From an uncultured cyanobacterium (lineage in GTDB: Bacteria; Cyanobacteriota; Cyanobacteriia; PCC-6307; Cyanobiaceae): 64,000 nucleotides of DNA. The notes beneath the pieces are model-generated. The model did no database searches, was not told the DNA's origin, and was given only the letters and a program-made list of their open reading frames with translations. The translations under genes and the position numbers were made by a program. Below, piece by piece: positions 53,499 through 64,000 of this stretch (position 1 is its first letter; the number at the start of each line of letters is the position of its first letter). The stretch is taken from contig CAVONQ010000002.1 in NCBI GenBank assembly GCA_963697335.1, positions 249,704-313,703 of the forward strand. Direction: 5' to 3'.

Positions 53499-54380
53499 AT
53501 GACCAGCACCGCCGCCAGTGCCCCCACCGCGTCCTCCGCAGCGGCCCCCTCGATCGCGGTGGTGGTGGCCGGCGCCCTCGGCCGCATGGGCGCGGAGGTG
53601 ATCCGGGCGCTGCTGGCGGCGCCCGACTGCCGCCTGGTGGGGGCGATCGACACCACCCCCGGCAAGGAGGGCGCCGATGTGGGCCTGGAGCTGGGCCTGG
53701 GCGAGCTGGAGGTGGCCGTGACGGCCGACTTCGAGGGTTGCCTCTGCCAGGCCAGCCAGCTGGTGCGCCAGGACGGCCCCGGCCAGGGGGCGGTGCTGGT
53801 GGACTTCACCCATCCGAAGGTGGTGTACGAGCACACCCGCGGCGCCATCGCCTACGGGGTGCACCCGGTGATCGGCACCACGGGCCTGAGCCCCGAGCAG
53901 CTGAACGATCTGGCGGTGTTCGCGGGCAAGGCCTCGATCGGGGGCGCCGTGATTCCCAACTTCTCGGTGGGCATGGTGCTGCTGCAGCAGGCCGCCGCCG
54001 CCGCCGCCCGCTTCTACGACTTCGCCGAACTCACCGAACTGCACCACAACCGCAAGGCCGATGCCCCCAGCGGCACCTGCATCAAGACCGCCGAGCTGAT
54101 GGAGGAGCTGGGCAAGAGCTTCAATCCCCTGCAGGTGGAGGAGCACGAAACCCTGGCCGGCAGCCGCGGTGGCCGGCGCGAGAGTGGCCTGCGCCTGCAC
54201 TCGGTGCGCCTGCCCGGCCTGGTGGCGCATCAGGAGGTGATGTTCGGCGCTCCGGGCGAAACCTATACGCTCCGCCACGACACGATCGACCGGGCCGCCT
54301 ACATGCCGGGCGTGCTGCTGGCGGTGCGGCGGGTGAGGTCGCTGCCAGGCCTGGTGTATGGCCTGGAGCGCCTGCTGTGA
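53499..54380 (+). CDS. dapB: 4-hydroxy-tetrahydrodipicolinate reductase
   Basis: [28 protein letters not shown]. Confidence 0.96.
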
Positions 54381-54414
54381 GGGACGCCAGGGTGAGGCCC
54401 GGAAGGGGGACGCG

Positions 54415-55062
54415 ATGCTGATACCGCTCAAACCAGGGGAGCTGACGCGGCTGATCCCGGCGGTGGCCACCGGCCCCCAGTTCAACGCCTGCAGCGGCTC
54501 GCCCCGCAAGCTGCTGCAGCGCTTCTTCATCTCGGTGATCGGGGGTGTGATCAGCCTGCTGGTGAGCCAGACCCTGCTGTTCTCCAGCCAGGCCGGCCCG
54601 ATCATGCTGGTGACGGGCTTCGTGTTCCTGCTCTACATGCTGTGGGGGCCGATCCTGGAGGCCGGCCGCCGCAACGCCACCCTGCGCAAATACCCCGCCG
54701 CGGCGATCTTCGAGGGCCAGGTGGGCGACCTTTACACCACCGAGGTGGTGGAGAACCGGCGCGAACAGGCCGACAAGGGCGGCCGGCTGGAGCTGGTGGA
54801 GAACCGCCGCACCTGGCTGACGCTGGAGCTGGGGGACGAGGAGGGCTACCTGGGCAAGCTGCGCTTCCCGATGGACAAGAAGCATCAGCTGATCCGGCGG
54901 GGGCAGGTGGTGCGGCTGTTGGTGCTGAGCGAGCGGCGCGACTTCTCCCGCATCGGCGCCATCACCGACGCCTGGCTGCCCCAGTTGAAGCTGTGGGTGG
55001 GCGAGTATCCCTTTCTGCTGAAGCCGGCCTTCGAGGAGCTGTGCCTGCGGCGCCTGAGGTAG
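54415..55062 (+). CDS. Conserved hypothetical membrane protein
   Basis: LIPAVATGPQF, two TM segments, ELVENRR. Confidence 0.75.
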   Translation: MLIPLKPGELTRLIPAVATGPQFNACSGSPRKLLQRFFISVIGGVISLLVSQTLLFSSQAGPIMLVTGFVFLLYMLWGPILEAGRRNATLRKYPAAAIFEGQVGDLYTTEVVENRREQADKGGRLELVENRRTWLTLELGDEEGYLGKLRFPMDKKHQLIRRGQVVRLLVLSERRDFSRIGAITDAWLPQLKLWVGEYPFLLKPAFEELCLRRLR

Positions 55063-55093
55063 GGGCGAGCCGGCCAGGGGAGCCAGCCCATGG

Positions 55094-55131
55094 GCAACAC
55101 CCCGTCACACTGCGCAACAATGTGTTACATT
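55094..55131 (+). promoter_or_regulatory. HLR1-like (RpaB) direct-repeat array upstream of hli
   Basis: GCAACACC/GTCACACT/GCAACAAT/GTTACATT at a 10-bp period. Confidence 0.55.
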
Positions 55132-55155
55132 TCATGCAGTGAACGAGCTTCTCCC

Positions 55156-55401
55156 ATGACCCAAGCCAATCCGGCCATCATCCGCGGCGCCACCGTGACC
55201 ACCGAAGACGGCGGTCGCCTCAACGCCTTCGCCAGCGAGCCCCGCATGGAAGTGGTGAGCCCCGAGAGCGGCTGGGGTTTCCACGAGCGTGCCGAGAAGC
55301 TGAACGGCCGCATGGCCATGCTGGGCTTCATTGCCCTGCTCGCCACCGAATTCGCCCTGGGCGGTGAGGCCTTCACCCGCGGCCTGCTGGGCATCGGTTG
55401 A
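55156..55401 (+). CDS. hli: High-light-inducible protein (Hlip)
   Basis: EDGGRLNAFA, AEKLNGRMAMLGF. Confidence 0.92.
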   Translation: MTQANPAIIRGATVTTEDGGRLNAFASEPRMEVVSPESGWGFHERAEKLNGRMAMLGFIALLATEFALGGEAFTRGLLGIG

Positions 55402-55468
55402 TCCCACCTGTGGCGCTTCTCTGAGGGCGCCTGACTGAGCGCGGCTCACTGAGCACCCCTTCTCCTTG

Positions 55469-55495
55469 AGCCGCAGACTGACCTGCGGCTTTTTT
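55469..55495 (+). terminator. Terminator after hli
   Basis: AGCCGCAG-ACTGAC-CTGCGGCT-T5. Confidence 0.8.
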
Positions 55496-55511
55496 GATGC
55501 CTGGCTCCGCG

Positions 55512-56687
55512 ATGGTGACCCCCCCCTATCGGGCCCTGGTGCACGGGGCCGGACCCACCGGCGCCCTCAGCGCCCTGGCCCTGGCCGAGGCCGGCTGGCA
55601 GGTGACCCTGGCTGACCCGATGGACGCGCAGCAGCTGTGCAGCCGCCAGCGGGCCTACGCCTTCAGCCACGCCAGCCGGCGCCTGCTGGAGCAGCTCGAT
55701 CTCTGGCCGGCCCTGCAGGAGGTGATGGTGCCGTTTCGGCGCCTGCTGCTCTGTGATCAGGAGCTGGGGGCGTCGGTGCCGTTCGGGCTGGGCGATCTGG
55801 CCCCGGCCCTGCGCCGTGGTGCCGGCGCCGCCGTGGGCTGGGTGGGGCTGCACCGGCCCCTGATGGAGCTGCTGCTGGCGCGGCTGCGGGCCCACCCGGC
55901 CGTGGCCCTGAAGCTGGGCGGTTCCCTGGAGGCCGCTGCCTCCCCGGGGGCCGGGGCGGACCGCGAGGCCCCCGATCTGGTGGTGGCCGCCGATGGCCCC
56001 CACTCCCCCCACCGCGAGGCCCTGGGCATCGGCGTGTGGCAGCACACCTACCGCCAGAGCTGCCTCACGGCCCAGGTGGCCCTGCGCGGCAGCGCCGTCG
56101 ACGAGGCCTGGGAGCTGTTTCGGCCCGAGGGGCCCTTTGCCGTGCTGCCCCTGGCGTCCGGCCAGGCCCAGATGGTGTGGAGCGCCGCCAGTGGCCGCTG
56201 CCGCCAGCTGGAGAGCCTGGGCTCCAATGCCTTTCTGGATGTGCTGGCCGCCAGCCTCCCGGACGGCCTGCAGCCCGATGGGCTGCTGGATCGGCCCCGG
56301 GCCTTTCCGGTGGGCCTGCTGCTGGCCCGCCGGCTCAGCCGTGGCTCCACGCTGCTGGTGGGGGAGAGCGCCCACCGCTGCCATCCCGTGGGCGGCCAGG
56401 GGCTCAACCTCTGCTGGCGCGATGTGGCGGTGCTGCATCGGCTGGCCCGTCGCACCGCCGCCGGACGGCTCAGGCCCGAACGGCTGCCGGGGGCCTACGG
56501 CCGCCGCCGCTGGCCCGACCTGCTGCTCACCCTGGCGGCCACCGATCTGCTGATGCGCCTGTTCTCCAACCGTGTCAGGCTGCTGCTGCCTTTTCGGCGC
56601 CTGGGCCTGGCCGCTCTGGCCTCCGTGGCTCCGCTGCGACGGCTCAGCCTGGGGGCCATGACCCACGGCCCCTGCCAGCCATGGTGA
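55512..56687 (+). CDS. FAD-dependent monooxygenase (UbiH-like)
   Basis: GAGPTG, VAADG, GESAH..HPVGGQGLN. Confidence 0.88.
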   Translation: MVTPPYRALVHGAGPTGALSALALAEAGWQVTLADPMDAQQLCSRQRAYAFSHASRRLLEQLDLWPALQEVMVPFRRLLLCDQELGASVPFGLGDLAPALRRGAGAAVGWVGLHRPLMELLLARLRAHPAVALKLGGSLEAAASPGAGADREAPDLVVAADGPHSPHREALGIGVWQHTYRQSCLTAQVALRGSAVDEAWELFRPEGPFAVLPLASGQAQMVWSAASGRCRQLESLGSNAFLDVLAASLPDGLQPDGLLDRPRAFPVGLLLARRLSRGSTLLVGESAHRCHPVGGQGLNLCWRDVAVLHRLARRTAAGRLRPERLPGAYGRRRWPDLLLTLAATDLLMRLFSNRVRLLLPFRRLGLAALASVAPLRRLSLGAMTHGPCQPW

Positions 56688-56712
56688 TGTCTCCGCTGAT
56701 GGCGCCCTGACG

Positions 56713-56925
56713 ATGGTCATCAGCTCCAGCCCCCAGTCGCCGCCTCCCCAGGCCCTGCTGCGCTACCTGCGCAACCAGCTGGGCCTGAGCGAGAGCGCCC
56801 TGGCCCTGGGCATCAAGCAGGCCCAGCTGGAGCAGGCGCCGCTGCCGGCGGTGCTGTGGCGCTACGGCCTGATCAGCCTGGAGCAGCTCGAGCAGGTGTG
56901 GACCTGGCAGGACAGCAACCTCTAG
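56713..56925 (+). CDS. DUF2949 family protein
   Basis: PLPAVLWRYGLISLEQL. Confidence 0.8.
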   Translation: MVISSSPQSPPPQALLRYLRNQLGLSESALALGIKQAQLEQAPLPAVLWRYGLISLEQLEQVWTWQDSNL

Positions 56926-56939
56926 GTCTGGCCGAGAGC

Positions 56940-57464
56940 TCAGTCGTAAATGATCAAGGAGGTGATCGACTGGGCCTCGGGCAGGCGACTGCGGCCGGAC
57001 AGACCGGCCAGTTCGGCCACAAAGCTGAAGCCGCACAGCTCGCCCCCGGCGCTGCTCACCAGCTCGGCGCAGGCGGCTGCGGTGCCACCGGTGGCCAGCA
57101 GATCGTCCACCACCAGCACCCGGGGGCTGCCTTCGAGGGCATCGCTGCAGATTTCGAGGCGGTCGCTGCCGTATTCGAGGGCGTAGTCGACGCCGGTGAC
57201 GGCGCCGGGGAGCTTGCCGGGCTTGCGCACCGGCACGAAGCCCAGCTCCAGGCGGGTGGCCAGGGCCATGCCCACGATGAAGCCCCGCGATTCGATGCCC
57301 ACGATCAGATCCGGCTGCAGGGCGTTGGCGGCCAGCTCCAGTTGGCGGATCACCTCCTGCCAGCCCTGGGGATCGCGCATCAGCGGCGTGAGATCGCGGA
57401 ACAGGATGCCGGGCTTCGGGAAGTCGGGCACATCGCGCACGAACTGGCGCAGATCAACGGCCAT
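56940..57464 (-). CDS. apt: Adenine phosphoribosyltransferase
   Basis: [29 protein letters not shown]. Confidence 0.96.
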
Positions 57465-57505
57465 CGGCGTGACGAAGGGGCGCGGGAGCTGGCATCATCG
57501 CAGCC

Positions 57506-58066
57506 ATGAGCGACCCAGCTGCAGCACCGCCAGCCCCGCCCCGGGCCGCTGAGCAGACCAGGCTGCCCCGCCGGGGACTGGAGCGGCTCGACCTGTTGCT
57601 GCTGAGCGTGGAGGCCCTCGACCTCAACGGCGGCGAGGCGATGGTGTGGATGAGCGAAGAGATGGGCTTCACCGGCCTGTTCCCCAACCGGGTGGAGCTC
57701 TGGAAACGGCGCTGCTACAACCCCCTGCGCCGCACCACCCGGCGCGGCGAGCTCGATCCGGCCGAGACGGACGCCCTGATCCGCATCCTCTGCGCCCTGG
57801 CCGACCGCCTCTACCCCCTGCTGCGGGCGCTGCTGTCGGAGGCCGAATCGCCCCAGGTGCGCGAGCAGCGCTGGCAGCTGTTCCAGGGGCGCCTGGGGGC
57901 GCTGCTGAACGAACGCATGAATCCCCGCCGGGTGGGGGTGCAGCGGCTGCTGGATCCCGTGCTGGGGGCCCCCCAGCGCCATCAGCTGGTGCAGACCCTC
58001 GCCCTCGGCGGCGGCATCGGTGGTTTCGAGCGGCTGCGCGCCAGCCTGATGGACCCCGGCGGCTGA
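57506..58066 (+). CDS. DUF3038 family protein
   Basis: LDLLLLSVEAL, NRVELW..R..NPLR. Confidence 0.8.
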   Translation: MSDPAAAPPAPPRAAEQTRLPRRGLERLDLLLLSVEALDLNGGEAMVWMSEEMGFTGLFPNRVELWKRRCYNPLRRTTRRGELDPAETDALIRILCALADRLYPLLRALLSEAESPQVREQRWQLFQGRLGALLNERMNPRRVGVQRLLDPVLGAPQRHQLVQTLALGGGIGGFERLRASLMDPGG

Positions 58067-58119
58067 GCCCCCTTGCCCCGACCTGACCCCACCCGCCATG
58101 ACCCCACCCTGAGTCCGCC

Positions 58120-58767
58120 ATGAAACAGACCCTGCGCTTCGAACAACTCAGCTGCCGGCTGCAGGTGGAGGGTCTGCCCGATGTGTCGGTGGGGCAGGGG
58201 GGCGAGGCGATCGGGATCATCACCGGCTGGAGCCTGAGCTGGGCCGGCCGGCCGGAGCTGGAGGGGCGCAAGGAGCACCTGCTGGCCCTGATGCAGGTGG
58301 TGTTGCCCTATGCCCGCCATCTGATCAGCGGCGTGCGCCGCCGCTTCGGCGGCCCGCCCCTGCCCGTGGAAATCGCCCCCGCTGGGGCAGACACCGCCGG
58401 GGCGAGCCACACCCTGCTGCTGCGCAGCAGCCAGCCCGACACCCCGCCTCTGACGATCGGCCTGGATGACGCCGAGCTGGCGGATCTGGTGCGGGTGCTG
58501 GACCAGCTGCGCCTCGATCCGCGCCTGCAGATGCCCCTGGATCTGCCCGTGCCCCAGCCCCTGAAGCCGCGGGAGGTGCAGGGGCGGCTGCCGCGGCGGC
58601 AGCGTCTGGCGGCTCCGCTGGGGGGAGCCGTGGCCCTCGCCATGGCCGCGGGGGTGAGCCTGCTGCTGCCCGAACCCCGCCCCCAGCCGGTCGCCGCCCC
58701 CCAGGCCCCTGCGGCCGCGGGCGCCCCCGCCGCTGGCTCCACGCCTGAGCCAGGTCCGAGTCCCTGA
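58120..58767 (+). CDS. DUF4335 family protein
   Basis: CRLQVEGLPD, YARHLISG, ELADLVRVLD. Confidence 0.8.
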   Translation: MKQTLRFEQLSCRLQVEGLPDVSVGQGGEAIGIITGWSLSWAGRPELEGRKEHLLALMQVVLPYARHLISGVRRRFGGPPLPVEIAPAGADTAGASHTLLLRSSQPDTPPLTIGLDDAELADLVRVLDQLRLDPRLQMPLDLPVPQPLKPREVQGRLPRRQRLAAPLGGAVALAMAAGVSLLLPEPRPQPVAAPQAPAAAGAPAAGSTPEPGPSP

Positions 58768-58880
58768 ACTTGACGCCGGCGCCAGGCTGGTCACACTGAG
58801 TCCAGGATTCAGGTTCCTTGGGCTACGTCAGCCAACGCCCTTCGTTTCCCGTTCTCTTTGCGCTTTGATCTGTCCGCTGC

Positions 58881-59129
58881 ATGACGACACTGAGCTGGTC
58901 TGAGTTGCGGATCCGGGTGGCGCGCCTGGGCGCCAGCCTCGATGTGGTGGTGCGCAGTGATCCCGAGGTGTGTGGCCTCAGTGGTGAGGAGTTTCGGCTC
59001 ACCCTGCACCACGGCGGCCAGGGCGACTGCACGGTGGGCGGCCTGCACCTGATCGACTGCCCCAACGAGCTGGTGCTGATGGAGTTCGAGCGCTGGATGC
59101 GTGGCGCCGGCCACGCCCTCGAGGCATGA
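58881..59129 (+). CDS. Hypothetical protein
   Basis: 82-aa ORF whose stop overlaps the next gene's start (ATGA). Confidence 0.6.
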   Translation: MTTLSWSELRIRVARLGASLDVVVRSDPEVCGLSGEEFRLTLHHGGQGDCTVGGLHLIDCPNELVLMEFERWMRGAGHALEA

Positions 59130-59488
59130 CCTCCTCCCGCCGTCCCCTGCTGCAGCTCCCCCAGAAGGCGGCGGGCCAGCGCAAGGTGTTTCGGCGCAAG
59201 AGCCGGCCGACGCGGCTGCGGCAGTTTGGCTCCGGGCTGCTGCTGGGGGCCCTGGGCTGTGGCCTGCTGGCGGGGCTGCTGCAGATCCCGGCGCGGCTCG
59301 ATGCCTTCCTGCTGCTCAGCGAGGCGCTCGTCCACCTGATCGAGGGGGTGAGCACCTTCCTGCTGGGGTTCGTGCAGCTGCTGGCCGTGGTGCTGCTGGT
59401 GGTGGTGGCCCTGGGGGCGCTGGTGCTGGTGGTGGCTGGGGTTGTGCGGCTGGTGCGGGCCTGCCTGCCCCGCCGCCCCTCGAGCTGA
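59126..59488 (+). CDS. Hypothetical membrane protein
   Basis: Basic N-terminus followed by hydrophobic helices. Confidence 0.6.
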   Translation: MTSSRRPLLQLPQKAAGQRKVFRRKSRPTRLRQFGSGLLLGALGCGLLAGLLQIPARLDAFLLLSEALVHLIEGVSTFLLGFVQLLAVVLLVVVALGALVLVVAGVVRLVRACLPRRPSS

Positions 59489-59502
59489 GGGCGGGAGCGG
59501 GC

Positions 59503-59616
59503 TCAGCCGTGCAGGCGCGAGAACCAGAGGCCGGTGAGCTGCCAGCTCGACCACAGAAAGGCGGCCAGAAACAGCCAGTTGAGCCAGGCGGGGCGCTGGC
59601 GGGGCTCCTGGGCCAT
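59503..59616 (-). CDS. Small membrane protein (37 aa)
   Basis: MAQEPRQRPAWLNWLFLAAFLWSSWQLTGLWFSRLHG. Confidence 0.5.
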   Translation of the reverse strand: MAQEPRQRPAWLNWLFLAAFLWSSWQLTGLWFSRLHG

Positions 59617-59719
59617 GGGGGTGTGGGGGGAGGGGATCCCCTCAGCCTGCCACCTGAACGGGTGTGTCGTTCCTTGTCTGTTTGTCGCTGAGGCTGGCCA
59701 GTTGCTTAGTCTCTGTGCC

Positions 59720-60076
59720 ATGGGAAATCCGATCAGCCGGGAATTATTTCTGGAACGGGCCCGTTCGCGCTTTGGCGATCGCTATGACTACGGCGAAATA
59801 ATCTACAAAAGCTATAAATCACCCATCAAGATTCGCTGCAAGATGCATCCGGTGAAGCAGATCTGCATCACCCCTGAAAAGCATCTGCAAACCACCGGCG
59901 GCTGCAAGTACTGCCTGCGGGAGATGCGCATTCAGATGCTGGAGCGGGAGCTCAACCGCCAGAGCGCCCAGCATCCCCCCGTCCAGGCGGGCGAGGCCGC
60001 TCGGCTGGAGCCCCAGACCGCTGCTGGCCTGGGCCCCCAGACGCCGCCGCCGCCGGCCTCACCACCCGCCCCCTGA
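59720..60076 (+). CDS. Stand-alone DUF723/CapR-like zinc-binding domain protein
   Basis: FLERAR..FGDRYDY...Y...SPIKIRCKMH......TPEKHL...GGCKYC. Confidence 0.65.
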   Translation: MGNPISRELFLERARSRFGDRYDYGEIIYKSYKSPIKIRCKMHPVKQICITPEKHLQTTGGCKYCLREMRIQMLERELNRQSAQHPPVQAGEAARLEPQTAAGLGPQTPPPPASPPAP

Positions 60077-60209
60077 GCCCTGGCCTGTCGCCCGTAGCCC
60101 GGCAGCTCAAGACCCAGGCCCTGGAGGTGTTCCGCGACCCCGCCGCAGCGCTGAGGCCACCCCTTTCGATCTTCAAGACCGCACCCGCAGGCTCGGTCAG
60201 GGGGCGCCG

Positions 60210-60500
60210 CGGGAGCACAACGTGGCCCTCGATGCGCCGGCTTGGATGGCACCTTGATGAAGGAAGCGCCGCTGCTGGCGGTGACCCTGGTGGACAACCA
60301 GGATTTGGTTGAAGCCGCTGGCCTACGCCTTCATCCTGCTGCGGGATGAGGGCTATCCCTGCAGCTTCCGTGCCGATTACTGCGGGGCCTCCCACCCCGC
60401 CGCGTTCATCACCAACGCCGAAGGCTGGGCCGAGTGGCACTGCCAGGGAGGCTCGGTGACGGGGTGGGTGGAGGAGAGCTGGTGGGAGGAGCCGTCTTAG
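60210..60500 (+). pseudogene. Deleted remnant of a cytoplasmic alpha-amylase (GH13, AmyA-like) C-terminus
   Basis: DGTLMKEAPLLAVTLVDNQD / WLKPLAYAFILLRDEGYPC..ADY.GA / TNAEGWAEWHCQGGSVTGWV in broken frames. Confidence 0.7.
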
Positions 60501-60549
60501 CCGTAGGGATCCTCACGGGATCTGGAGTGTGCTAAGGGTATAGAGACCT

Positions 60550-60598
60550 GTGCTCAAAGGGCCTGCTGAGGGCCTGCAGTCCGGCTGACATTTTGTAG
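60550..60598 (+). pseudogene. intI: 3'-terminal stub of an integron integrase
   Basis: GTGCTCAA-AGGGCCTGCTGAGGGCCTGCAGTCCGGCTGACATTTTGTAG reads, with a frameshift, VL(N)..GLLRACSPADIL*, like the IntI tail VLNRGxxGVxSPxD; upstream of the cassettes. Confidence 0.5.
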
Positions 60599-60853
60599 CC
60601 AATTGAACAGGTGGTTTGCGGACCCATGAACCACACTGAAGAAGACAGGAGCGGTGCTGAGATCCTAAGGTGGGCAAGGGATTTCCAGAATCGGGTGAGG
60701 ATTTCTAATTGTGGTTATCAGAAAGGTGAGGACCGGCTGCTGTGGTTCATGGAACCATCCAATGACTAGTTGGCAGGGCATCTAAGAGTCTCGTCAGACT
60801 TGACATACTTGCGGCACTGCTCTAAATTTTCAATTCCTATAGACCTTGGGCTA

Positions 60854-61273
60854 GTGGCAAGCTGGTTGACCGAGTTTCAGGAGTGGTACGCCGAGCAGCA
60901 CCCCATTGTTAAAGGCGCAGTTGTACTAGGCGGTGGCGCCGTTGCCTGCGCTGGTGGTGTTGTTGCTGCCCCCGTTGTCGGTGCGATGGCATCTGCAGCA
61001 GGTCTAGGGGTAGCAGGAGGATCCCTAGCGGGCGCTGCCGCGTCTTCGGCAGGTCTTGCTGCTTTGGGTGGAGGCTCCTTGGCTGCAGGTGGTCTGGGGA
61101 TGGCTGGAGGAACAGCTGTAGTAGCTGCAGCAGCAGGTGCGGCAGGTGCAGGTGCCACATCAATCCTAAGCAAGAAAGTTGATTCCGAAGGTGAACGCAC
61201 GAAGGAAGACTTCAAGAGGGCTTCAAGCGAAAGGGTTCAAAAAGGTGACATTCGTTTTGAGGATGAGGTTTGA
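60854..61273 (+). CDS. Glycine-zipper membrane protein A (cassette 1)
   Basis: Long Gly/Ala hydrophobic tract GAAASSAGLAALGGGSLAAGGLGMAGG. Confidence 0.7.
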   Translation: MASWLTEFQEWYAEQHPIVKGAVVLGGGAVACAGGVVAAPVVGAMASAAGLGVAGGSLAGAAASSAGLAALGGGSLAAGGLGMAGGTAVVAAAAGAAGAGATSILSKKVDSEGERTKEDFKRASSERVQKGDIRFEDEV

Positions 61274-61275
61274 CG

Positions 61276-61647
61276 ATGGCTTCTGTCGCTGACTTTGCAA
61301 CTGAATTTGCCAAGAGAGCTGCAAATGGCAAAAATCCTTCTGTTTATGTGTCTAAGTTGCATGTAGAGAGCTTCCTTCTGGTCTTGGCGCGAGAGGGGTT
61401 CTCGTTCGCTAAGGAGGCACTTGAGCAAATCACCGATCCAGATCTCAGAAGAATCATTGAGACGATCTTCTTCTCAACCGTGATTGGAGCGGGCGCGGGT
61501 GCTGTTATCGGGGGAGTAGTTGCTGGCCCCCCGGGAGCTCAAGTGGGAGCTGCTGTTGGTGCAGGCCTAGGTTTCGCAGCCGGCTGTATCGCCATAACAA
61601 TTACTGCTAAGCAAAAGGGGGATGGCCTTCAGATCTCTATGGCCTAA
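61276..61647 (+). CDS. Glycine-zipper membrane protein B (cassette 1)
   Basis: GAGAGAVIGGVVAGPPGAQVGAAVGAGLG hairpin; abuts gene A. Confidence 0.75.
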   Translation: MASVADFATEFAKRAANGKNPSVYVSKLHVESFLLVLAREGFSFAKEALEQITDPDLRRIIETIFFSTVIGAGAGAVIGGVVAGPPGAQVGAAVGAGLGFAAGCIAITITAKQKGDGLQISMA

Positions 61648-61725
61648 TACACTTTAGCACTTCCCTCTGGAGTTCAATAGGGATTATCATAGTTTGCGAA
61701 AGTGCATCAGGCTGCAACAGTTGCC

Positions 61726-61810
61726 TGCCAACATCAAGATACAGAAGACGGGAGCGATACGTAATGGCTGGTCTTGGGGTTGTTGCCCGCTTCTGATCTT
61801 GGCGTTATGC
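61726..61810 (+). repeat. attC site 1
   Basis: TGCCAAC-ATCAAGAT-A-CAGAAG-A-CGGG...CCCG-CTTCTG-ATCTTGG-C-GTTATGC imperfect inverted repeat with bulged bases. Confidence 0.85.
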
Positions 61811-61976
61811 GGCCTACCTGAAGCTAGCCATTCGAAAGCTTCCTACATCTGAGCTTTGCGCCTGCCTCGGGCTGCAATCCATGAACACTCAGCTTGGTGA
61901 GCCTATAATTTTGAAATCTGCCTTGGGGCGCACGTCATAGTGTCGGTTCAGTAAGCCTTCCGCGCAGGAGCCCTAA

Positions 61977-62702
61977 GTGCTACCACCCATCACGAGACAG
62001 AAGTACGCTGAAAGGTTGGCCGAGTTAATCAGGCGCGGGGAAGCGGTGCCTGTCTCAAGCAAGACTATATCGAGCGAGAATTGGGTCACTGGCATGACCA
62101 CCTCCAGGCTAGTCGAGACAGTTGATTGGCCAGAATTCGTAAAGTGGCGCACCAACTGCACGACTCTGCTCGACCAGCTGTTGCCTACTTCCAGTGCCCA
62201 TCGTGCCACCGCCGAGCAATTCAAAACAATAAAGAATAATCGTGATTCGCTGCAGTTTGGCATTCAGTTCATGAAAGCCGTTTCTGAAGACTTTGATCAA
62301 GGATTTTTTGACGACATCGGAATGCAGATTGAGACTGAGATCGCTGCTGATTATCTTGGTCAAGCGATAATGCTGGTCGAGTCGGAGTTGCGGGAACAGA
62401 TCAGCTCTGCCCCAGCGGCCGTCCTTGCCGGGGTGGTTCTTGAGAAGTGTCTTCGCTCAATGTGCGAACATTTGAGCCCCCCAGAGCCAACAACACTAAA
62501 TAACGGAAAGCCCCTAACATTGAACCCATTAATCGAAGCATTGCGAAAGAGGGGCGCATTCAACGAGGTACAGGCCAAGCACCTCCGAGCATGGGCTGAC
62601 ATTCGGAATAGTGCCGCGCACGGACAATTTGAAGAATTCACAACGGAACAAGTAAAGGCAATGATCAGAGGCATTGAATTGTTTCTGGCGCAAAGCAGAT
62701 GA
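61977..62702 (+). CDS. HEPN-domain (DUF4145-like) protein (cassette 2)
   Basis: AAVLAGVVLE..LR and RNSAAH (Rx4H); AGGAG RBS before the GTG start. Confidence 0.8.
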   Translation: MLPPITRQKYAERLAELIRRGEAVPVSSKTISSENWVTGMTTSRLVETVDWPEFVKWRTNCTTLLDQLLPTSSAHRATAEQFKTIKNNRDSLQFGIQFMKAVSEDFDQGFFDDIGMQIETEIAADYLGQAIMLVESELREQISSAPAAVLAGVVLEKCLRSMCEHLSPPEPTTLNNGKPLTLNPLIEALRKRGAFNEVQAKHLRAWADIRNSAAHGQFEEFTTEQVKAMIRGIELFLAQSR

Positions 62703-62703
62703 T

Positions 62704-62737
62704 CTCTAATATGAGCATCCAGAGAGTCCACTTAGGC
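62704..62737 (+). repeat. Degenerate, internally deleted attC site
   Basis: CTCTAAT-ATGAGCATCCAG right after the stop codon; ends CTTAGGC, complementary to the next R'' GCCTAAC. Confidence 0.45.
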
Positions 62738-62822
62738 CGCCAGCAGAGATTTCTGGCCTAGTAGCACCTATAACCTCAAGCTGCGCCTTAAACTTAGCTT
62801 GAGACAGATCTGGAAGAGCAGA

Positions 62823-63455
62823 ATGAACATTCATTGGACAAAGGAACACTTGCCGTTTCGGGAGAGCCTTATTGAGGTCAACATGGTTGTTGGGTATCGC
62901 GACCGCACCACTCAGAACATTACGGATTGCCCTGCTTATATTTTGCAAGGCATAAGAAATGGGGTCCTGAAGAATTATCCAACTGCATTGAAGAAATATA
63001 ACACGTCTTACTGCAACGCTATCCCCAAGATTATCAGTGGCTTTCTGACAGCATTCAAGGATCGTTGCGTTCACCATGCTGCCCTCATTGTGCCACCTTC
63101 CTCTCGGGATGACGCGCGGCCTTATGCGGAAGCTTTGTTGAAGGCTGGGATAGCGTACATCGACTTATCCGACTGTGTACAGAGAATCGATTCTTCTTTC
63201 CGCGCAGGTGGGGCGGTGTCGTTTGAAGATGTTTGCTCTTCAATCAAGGTTATTCAAGAACCACCGACCGAACCTTACGGCTCCCTAGTCGTGGTCGATG
63301 ATGTTTTGTCTTCCGGGCGTTCAGTCGCGGCAGTCGTGCTGGCACTTCGCAATTCAGGATTTATTCTTCAATCGACCGAGATTTTCGTGGCTGCTGTGCT
63401 CTCTGTCGAACGCAAGGTTCAGGTCGAACCGGCTGGCGAGGAAGAGACTGCCTAA
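62823..63455 (+). CDS. Phosphoribosyltransferase-like (ComF-type) protein (cassette 3)
   Basis: LIVPPSS and PRPP-loop LVVVDDVLSSGRS; stop codon lies inside the attC R''. Confidence 0.75.
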   Translation: MNIHWTKEHLPFRESLIEVNMVVGYRDRTTQNITDCPAYILQGIRNGVLKNYPTALKKYNTSYCNAIPKIISGFLTAFKDRCVHHAALIVPPSSRDDARPYAEALLKAGIAYIDLSDCVQRIDSSFRAGGAVSFEDVCSSIKVIQEPPTEPYGSLVVVDDVLSSGRSVAAVVLALRNSGFILQSTEIFVAAVLSVERKVQVEPAGEEETA

Positions 63456-63536
63456 CATCATCATCCAACCGGCCCGTTCAAACCAGTTTGTATAGTAGCC
63501 ATGATTGCCGCGCGCGGCTGATGATGGGCGTAATGC
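63450..63536 (+). repeat. attC site 2 (R' GTT mutated to GTA)
   Basis: GCCTAAC-ATCATCAT-C-CAACCG...CGGCTG-ATGATGGGC-GTAATGC. Confidence 0.75.
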
Positions 63537-63554
63537 GGAAACACAGCTTGAGCC

Positions 63555-64000
63555 ATGCCTAAGCGTCAGCGGTCGATAGGGTCGCTTCGGCGGGAGCTCG
63601 TCATGAAGTCTCGGGAGGCGGCGCTAACGGCAATTCGTGTCTTTAATGACCCACAGGTTAACTTCAAGTCGGAGACGTTTATCGTCTTGATGATGATCGC
63701 TTGGACGTATCTTCTGCACGCATACTATCGGGCACAGAAGGTCGAGTATAGGTACTATAAGCAGGGCCCAAAGCGGCGGATTTTCGATCGCACAAAGCAT
63801 GGCGCCTACAAATACTGGGAGCTGGAGGGCTGCTTGAACGAGAGCAGCTGTCCGCTCGACCGCGACACAGCGAACAACCTTCGGTTTCTTCTTGGCCTTC
63901 GTCATGAAATAGAGCACCAAATGACGAAGTCCCTGGACGCTTACCTAAGTGGCAGATACCAGGCATGCGCCCTTAATTTTAATGAGTATCTCAAGAGCCT
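63555..64000 (+). CDS. DUF3644-like HEPN protein (cassette 4), runs off the window
   Basis: Not in the ORF track. Manual translation: KSREAALTAIRVFNDP..FKSETFIVLMMIAWTYLLHAYY...YWEL...LRHEIEH. Confidence 0.8.
   Translation, partial: MPKRQRSIGSLRRELVMKSREAALTAIRVFNDPQVNFKSETFIVLMMIAWTYLLHAYYRAQKVEYRYYKQGPKRRIFDRTKHGAYKYWELEGCLNESSCPLDRDTANNLRFLLGLRHEIEHQMTKSLDAYLSGRYQACALNFNEYLKS

Follow-up and report, generated by a model that had tools for sequence, protein, structure and literature searches.

A co-oriented chromosomal integron of a Cyanobium-like picocyanobacterium that has probably lost intI and kept attI and cassettes

We analysed a stretch of 64,000 nucleotides (the window) from the genome of a Cyanobium-like picocyanobacterium (G000). 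It corresponds to positions 249704–313703 of contig C2, which is 313,703 bases long, and position 64000 of the window is the contig end. At this end, the region 60549–64000 very probably belongs to a chromosomal integron of the co-oriented class and represents its integrase-proximal part, from which the integrase gene intI was lost and in which the attachment site attI and the following cassettes were kept; we put the probability of this anatomy at about 0.9. That this anatomy holds and that cassettes were also exchanged, by some route, after the loss is likely as well, if less firmly so. Because the window ends where the contig does, the array that begins at ~60550 is cut by the assembly. The elements named in a preliminary description of this locus are all present, within at most 1–3 bases of the positions given there. 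The drop in GC content that it mentioned is clear, from 0.65–0.78 over 54000–60400 to 0.45–0.58 over 60400–64000. No second copy of window 59001–64000 was found in the G000 genome, and an Rfam search returned two matches only, both at chance level.

The intI remnant lies at 60549..60598 on the plus strand and consists of ~17 codons (..SKGLLRACSPADIL*); compared with intact genes, it has a 2-nt indel. The frame that ends at 60598 reads ..GYRDLCSKGLLRACSPADIL, with the stop codon at 60596–60598 (..CSPADIL). This C-terminus, SPADIL*, is that of the intI ends in two related genomes (contig C10 of G009 and contig C2 of G019); the intact IntI encoded on contig C16 of G000 ends in ..IYTHVLNKGPLGVSSPVDLL*. 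A tblastn search with the C16 IntI against 58001–61000, a check of the kind that the preliminary description had proposed, did recover the stub (8 of 19 positions identical), but its E value of 0.49 is not significant alone. Because the similarity at the protein level is this weak, DNA alignment with the closer integron type on contig C90 of genome G004 was needed. Window 60549–60775 aligns to the last ~50 nt of that intI and to the entire intergenic region before its first cassette, with a local alignment score of 113 compared with 28.5 ± 4.1 (maximum 49) in 200 shuffles. This alignment bears out both the proposed identity of the stub as an IntI C-terminus and the homology of the attI with that of an intact relative. 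The intI homology begins at ~60549 and ~95% of the gene is gone; the deletion of most of intI, as originally proposed, is therefore evident from the ~17 terminal codons left. The stop codon lies 170 nt before the GTTGGCA at 60769–60775, in agreement with the earlier estimate of about 170 bp between the stub and the first GTT. A TIGR02249 search of contig C2 detected nothing except an unrelated recombinase at C2:1402–2181, and the adjacent intI that marks a complete integron is here represented by its terminal codons only.

By homology, the segment that follows at 60605–60771 on the plus strand is a complete attI; it contains three conserved boxes, with the crossover point G/TT at 60769–60771; the preliminary description had placed attI near 60740–60775. 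Box A (60605..60635, GAACAGGTGGTTTGCGGACCCATGAACCACA) comes straight after the stop codon. Together with box B (60710..60723, TGTGGTTATCAGAA), it forms a conserved block in an alignment of ten attI regions, and box C with the crossover (60741..60771) is supported by comparison with the sister species G012 and by a pattern found across the genus. In the ten-region alignment the three boxes are conserved, the spacers are not, and the similarity stops right after the GTT in every genome. G012 shares 29 of 31 positions of box A, 12 of 14 of box B and 30 of 31 of box C with the window; beyond the GTT, 3 of 19 positions are identical. In relatives, boxes A–C align with the region that separates an intact intI from the first cassette. 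G000 and G012 have the same base at 68 of 76 columns that are conserved in eight other attI sites, compared with 69 of 99 at variable columns (Fisher p 0.0016), which suggests that the orphan attI may have remained constrained after the loss of intI. We rejected a 52-aa open reading frame (ORF) inside attI (60611–60769) as a gene, as it matches no Pfam family and the spacers it covers are not conserved. Separately, the 40 nt at 60594–60633 after the intI stop, which include box A with GTGGTT..AACCAC, recur in contigs of three public sequencing runs (X1, X2 and X6) with 2–3 letters different out of 32–40 and with both flanks different. This recurrence points to an element conserved in its own right, possibly a binding site or a terminator.

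To locate attC sites we used a covariance model of our own (R1, not the model of IntegronFinder), for which 19 attC sites were taken from relatives and the window contributed none. The sites came from six related genomes (loci L039–L045), representing five arrays behind intact intI genes and the syntenic array of G012, and compensatory changes were present in 11 of the 12 predicted pairs of the consensus hairpin. Over the 64-kb window R1 gave four matches at E ≤ 10, two of them significant. The first, attC1, spans 61723–61813 on the plus strand (49.7 bits, E 8e-10), with R'' TGCCAAC at 61726–61732 and R' GTTATGC at 61804–61810. The second, attC2, spans 63447–63539 on the same strand (35.9 bits, E 1.6e-6), with R'' GCCTAAC at 63449–63455, one base from the figure given earlier, and R' GTAATGC at 63530–63536. 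The two hairpins of the preliminary description are therefore confirmed as attC sites, in that a covariance model detects them as imperfect palindromes in a strand-specific manner. The minus strand of attC1 scores 8.5 bits, which fixes its orientation as plus, and two extra bases are found on its R''/L'' arm. Sites of the attC1 family also occur in the arrays of G002, G008 and G016 and in eight further genomes of the genus, and those of the attC2 type in G002 and G028. The remaining two R1 matches (E 0.14 and 0.7) are partial and lie in GC-rich coding sequence; with filters off, R1 identified nothing in 60000–64000 beyond attC1 and attC2. Genome-wide, the motif GCGTWATGC has seven sites, and by eye an attC-like hairpin context is present at the two window sites only. 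A simple scanner for AAC...GTT hairpins gave 44 matches over both strands and missed attC2, because this site has GTA.

These sites delimit three cassettes, the third of which is cut by the contig end: cassette 1 at 60770..61804, cassette 2 at 61805..63530 and cassette 3 at 63531..64000, all on the plus strand. The ends of cassette 1 are complementary at seven of seven positions, GTTGGCA (60769–60775) being the exact complement of TGCCAAC (61726–61732), as the preliminary description had noted; both 7-mers depart from the RYYYAAC/GTTRRRY consensus at one shared position. For cassette 2 the agreement is six of seven (GTTATGC and GCCTAAC). A further pair that had been proposed, CTTAGGC (62731–62737) with GCCTAAC, did not hold up: it is a 6-mer match with the wrong first base, about as expected by chance in 1.7 kb, and R1 detects no attC there. 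The earlier count of at least four cassettes is accordingly reduced to three attC-bounded units. Two candidates for a third attC were rejected. At 62731 or ~62795 the best R1 match is 3.5 bits (E 5.1, at 62701–62740), and an 8-bp stem seen by eye near 62775–62800 (CTCAAGCT/AGCTTGAG) has no GTT after it. The stub, both attC sites and the five cassette ORFs are all on the plus strand. The “inverted-integrase” layout proposed before, with intI on the strand of the cassettes and attI 3' of intI, is consequently supported, and intact relatives have the same order of intI, attI and cassettes.

The sister species G012, our closest relative of G000 with a closed genome, carries the same junction between an alpha-amylase gene, the intI stub and attI. 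The two loci align with a local score of 441 over 60344–60775; blast identity is 78.8% over 60392–60774, which covers stub and attI, and 86.6% in the upstream flank. A blast search of window 60775–64000 against 16 kb of the G012 locus found no match. The G012 array is at least 12 kb long, and its cassettes obey the rule of end complementarity (GTTAGCT/AGCTAAC and GTTAGAC/GTCTAAC). The simplest reading of these sequences would be one truncation in the common ancestor, followed by divergence in cassette content. An old deletion took ~95% of intI and fused its last ~17 codons to the alpha-amylase gene; it would be older than the split between G000 and G012. In G012 that gene is intact (605 aa) and ends ~45 nt before the stub and attI. 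In the window it is a frame-broken remnant (60232..60500, plus strand) that forms the chromosomal flank now fused to the stub, and its ORF at 60309–60500 matches solved alpha-amylases (best E 4.3e-11). Comparison of window 60127–60500 with L039:12545–14362 likewise shows frame-broken fragments in G000 and the intact 605-aa gene in G012; the reduction of the amylase in G000 came after the shared truncation. Elsewhere in G012, at L041 (G012:C1 ~995300–995580), the attI of its sole full intI is apparently split by an IS3-family transposase orfA, as judged by eye.

Further evidence on the cassettes came from public sequencing runs. None of these holds the whole stretch, the best share of sampled words being 0.23. 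We compared contigs of four runs from four studies (X1, X2, X6 and X8) over 60300–64000, where uncovered parts (e.g., 60424–60547) are uninformative. The contigs carry single window cassettes at 90–99% identity with different neighbours, so that all three cassettes are found elsewhere in other company, and the matches break at 60769, 61802–61807 and 63529–63531, where they meet other attC or attI sequences. Cassette 1 is present in X6 and X8 contigs at ~95–96% identity with breaks at 60769 and 61807. In X6 it starts at 60769 directly behind box C of a different attI of this type, and in X1 and X8 it stops at 61807 before other sequence. The start of cassette 2 lies at 61802/61803 in X1 (61802–63318) and X2 (tiles covering 61803–63531), preceded by a different attC site in each, and its end in X2 is 63531. 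Cassette 3 starts at 63529 behind another attC in X8, where its first letters, TAATGC, also follow a different attC. The GTA of attC2, also seen in X8, is part of cassette 3 and moves along with this cassette. We also observed in X2 a joint from 63531 to 61784 (back 1748; 34 letters), which might represent another attC of the attC1 family further downstream, or else a cassette in tandem or circular form.

Given a truncation shared with G012, unlike cassettes in the two species and recurrence of the window cassettes elsewhere, cassettes would have been exchanged at the window attI after the integrase was lost, in which case another source must have supplied the recombinase. A search of the genome for an intI acting in trans had been suggested, and G000 does encode an intact IntI at C16:4656–5735, which scores 466 bits against a curated cut-off of 265, contains no stops and is the only one above the cut-off. 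Its nearest named relatives are from Cyanobium, freshwater Synechococcus and Vulcanococcus; it is 56–60% identical to Treponema IntIs, other phyla score similarly, and a tree would need a longer sequence than the window stub. On C16 the integron is also co-oriented, with attC sites at C16:1869–1961 and 1064–1172 around a MazEF-like pair (named by reading translations). A second intI, at the start of contig C15 (C15:5–701), is decayed, as it contains a TAA stop and has lost an internal piece. Its closest match is the G004:C90 type, which goes with the window attI (73.6% identity, compared with 67.6–69.2% for other intI loci over the same stretch). The recombinase could have been the intact C16 IntI or a now-decayed IntI of cognate type on C15. 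We lean slightly towards an IntI acting in trans at the window attI, and such service in trans appears plausible from the sequences compared. The broader idea that orphan attI sites are working satellite docking sites under selection, with one IntI serving several scattered arrays in trans, is more tentative and less likely than not.

Several observations weigh against parts of this reading. The C16 attI is of a related but other type, matching at 17 of 27 box-C positions with one gap (by eye), and the sole full IntI of G012 also has that other attI type. The IntI nearest to the attI type of the window is the C15 pseudogene, and an intact cognate integrase is thus absent from both genomes today. 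The window keeps 66 of the 76 conserved attI positions, compared with 71 of 76 in G012, and the R' of attC2 has GTA in place of GTT. Folding energy does not separate the hairpins from shuffles (z for attC1, −1.8 for the bottom and −2.0 for the top strand; for attC2, −0.4 and +1.1, respectively), nor did it pick out anything at 62690–62790 or 60700–60800. The array is cut by the contig end, and its far flank would lie beyond this point. Recombination in this strain is something we infer from comparison only, and homologous replacement of whole arrays would also end the homology at the GTT.

Such homologous replacement, in which arrays are swapped after DNA uptake by crossovers in attI or its flank and downstream, with no integrase involved here, seems to us unlikely but still a live rival. 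The attI boxes are conserved genus-wide and offer homology, and with each donor array differing from the GTT on, the same pattern would result. Natural transformation is described as feeding cassette exchange in Vibrio in the relevant part of PMC12614218, although there the exchange depends on the integrase. The conserved stretches are nevertheless short (boxes of 14–31 nt within a total of 170 nt at 66–93% identity), the upstream flank is just 86.6% identical even to the closest species, and it is single cassettes, not entire arrays, that recur elsewhere.

An array that has been static and merely decaying since intI was lost is improbable, although the preliminary description had held that the deletion froze the array. 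The reduction of intI to ~17 codons, the drift of attI at 10 of 76 conserved positions, the GTA of attC2 and the lack of an attC between the genes of cassette 2, a possible sign of decay, would all suit a relic. There are parallels, too, in the static remnants after intI loss in Treponema phagedenis (passages of PMC3607928 on such remnants) and in the steadier arrays after intI inactivation in Xanthomonas (PMC12444791). What speaks against a frozen array is that G012 shares the truncation and has wholly different cassettes from the GTT on. Moreover, cassette copies elsewhere are 90–99% identical, compared with 66–70% for attI spacers and variable columns between species, and the GTA is a property of the next cassette, also in X8. 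With an intact IntI available on C16 as well, the claim of freezing was not upheld. A chimeric join of attI and cassettes in contig C2, with cassettes assembled from another integron such as that of C15, is very improbable. The assembly does break at integron loci (the C2 end and the C15 start, with cassette-type low-GC sequence reaching the C16 start and the C7 end), and the end of C15 falls within an intI whose type is that of the window attI. Against this, C15 and window 59001–64000 have no sequence in common, the left junction is confirmed by G012, the attI GTTGGCA is exactly complementary to the R'' of attC1 in an unusual 7-mer, and in the X6 contig, too, cassette 1 immediately follows a box C of this type.

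With intI lost and attI kept, the locus is an integron remnant of a known kind, a cluster of attC sites lacking an integron integrase (CALIN) of the co-oriented class that retains attI. In its passages on CALINs, PMC4889954 lists loss of intI as one of their origins, states that their cassettes may still be mobilised, and reports that 15 of 279 had a recognisable intI pseudogene nearby, by a test that needs >50% profile coverage and would thus miss the window stub. Like the CALINs described there, the window carries two or more attC sites within 4 kb (here 1.6 kb apart) and no nearby intI, with an IntI elsewhere in the genome; unlike them, it keeps attI and a 17-codon intI tail, and the origin by deletion is visible. 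Surveys label such loci CALIN, usually without telling their origin or ongoing exchange. In the co-oriented class attI lies behind intI, so that a 5' deletion of intI leaves attI in place and the origin legible.

The passages of PMC3607928 on spirochaete integrons group the Synechococcus IntI with that of Treponema and report integrase-less remnants in Treponema. As in the Treponema denticola integrons treated there, intI in the window is transcribed toward the cassettes; the T. phagedenis remnant is called static in that source, whereas our comparisons point to exchange after the loss. The sister species G012 places the loss of intI before the turnover of cassettes. In Xanthomonas, intI is divergent from its cassettes. 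PMC12444791 describes widespread inactivation of Xanthomonas intI with arrays retained; the window resembles this in its ancestral platform, fixed chromosomal site, repeated lineage-specific loss of intI and kept array. It differs in that Xanthomonas intI is mostly inactivated by mutation, whereas a 5' deletion in the window left attI, which lies 3' of the gene. What the locus may add to the relevant passages of PMC4889954, PMC3607928 and PMC12444791 is a change of cassettes at attI after integrase loss, for which homologous replacement stays a live rival. If service in trans is true, counts based on adjacent intI would underestimate the gene-capture capacity of freshwater picocyanobacteria. 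In a limited collection of literature on cyanobacterial integrons, no title or abstract was devoted to integrons of Cyanobium.

Within the genus, the intact integrons at G004:C90, G009:C10, G019:C2:2458575 and G002:C1:248362 have the same attI boxes, IntI C-terminus and attC families as the window; unlike it, they retain intI at full length, and the match contains no internal stop. IntI is present in 23 of the 31 other genomes. The box-C pattern occurs at 26 sites in 17 of 32 genus genomes and at none in a reversed control. We paired these sites with IntI places at E ≤ 1e-40, a filter that short stubs escape: six lie behind a full-length stop-free intI, two behind a full-length one with one stop, three behind C-terminal or internal fragments and one at a contig edge, and 14, the window included, have no listed intI. 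These 14 sites, together with a second such head on contig C7 of G000, indicate that the beheaded state is ordinary in the genus.

That second head (C7:221240–226877) has a tiny intI tail (..CCAGCCTTCTGTAA) and an attI ending in GTTACCGGACCCGGATAATCAGCGTT. Its stub and attI (~221240–221372) are followed by a 140-nt cassette without an ORF, an attC at 221422–221513 and low-GC sequence up to the contig end. Five co-oriented attC matches (50.8–71.9 bits) were observed in a lower-GC stretch at C14:78435–83894, with no IntI similarity found in the 4.5 kb upstream of this cluster, and a single attC match is present at C9:7964–8058. Altogether G000 contains eleven attC matches at five loci. The genome shows one intact integron, one decayed intI, two heads of stub and attI (on C7 and at the C2 end) and one or more additional attC clusters.

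The cassettes of the window encode the following products. Cassette 1 carries two small Gly-rich, glycine-zipper-like membrane proteins (ORFs 60770–61273 and 61270–61647) and attC1; the second ORF has weak glycine-zipper Pfam matches only. Cassette 2 carries a DUF4145/HEPN-like gene (61977–62702), a phosphoribosyltransferase-like gene (62799/62823–63455) and attC2, with weak Pfam matches under the curated cut-offs. Because X1 and X2 carry 61803–63318/63531 unbroken, the two genes form one cassette today. A 76%-identical phosphoribosyltransferase-like gene in G028 opens its own cassette right after GTTAGAC, and cassette 2 is thus possibly an old fusion of two cassettes, with a former boundary nearer 62795 than 62731. 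Promoter-like sites are found at 60800–60828 and 61882–61909 (the scan of the region gave seven, compared with 2.3 ± 1.7 expected); as cassettes 1 and 2 carry such sites of their own, they could be expressed without the lost intI region. The cut cassette 3 encodes a DUF3644 protein (63555→64000, Pfam E 3.7e-47), which in PADLOC scores 273 bits against the candidate defence family PDC-S19. The visible cassettes thus include a candidate anti-phage gene, in keeping with the statements in 10.1101/2024.07.02.601719 that integron cassettes carry phage defence.

Two further cassette-like units were observed. A mini-cassette without an ORF (GTTGCTTAGACCGTGTTTTTACGG..TAGAAT..) is conserved directly behind attI in several genomes, at C7:221370–221510 and C16:1872–2014 in G000 and at L020 (G019), L015 (G008) and L041 (G012); it may provide the array with a promoter. 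The second is a 2.45-kb unit that occupies the first cassette position at attI in the intact integron of C16 (C16:2033–4488, also L047) and encodes a 302-aa tyrosine recombinase and, by eye, a candidate 352-aa IS91-like transposase. It starts at CAGCG/TTGAAC, and an attC-like hairpin of 54 nt (GTTCAAC...GTTGCTA) closes it. At C2:1–2456, behind ..CCGTT, there is a copy with 99.1% identity; the unit is also found behind an attI of G002 (GTTGAACTAAGCC..), and its terminal hairpin precedes window cassettes in X2 and X8. It may be an insertion sequence that moves in the manner of integron cassettes, or one with GTT as its target.

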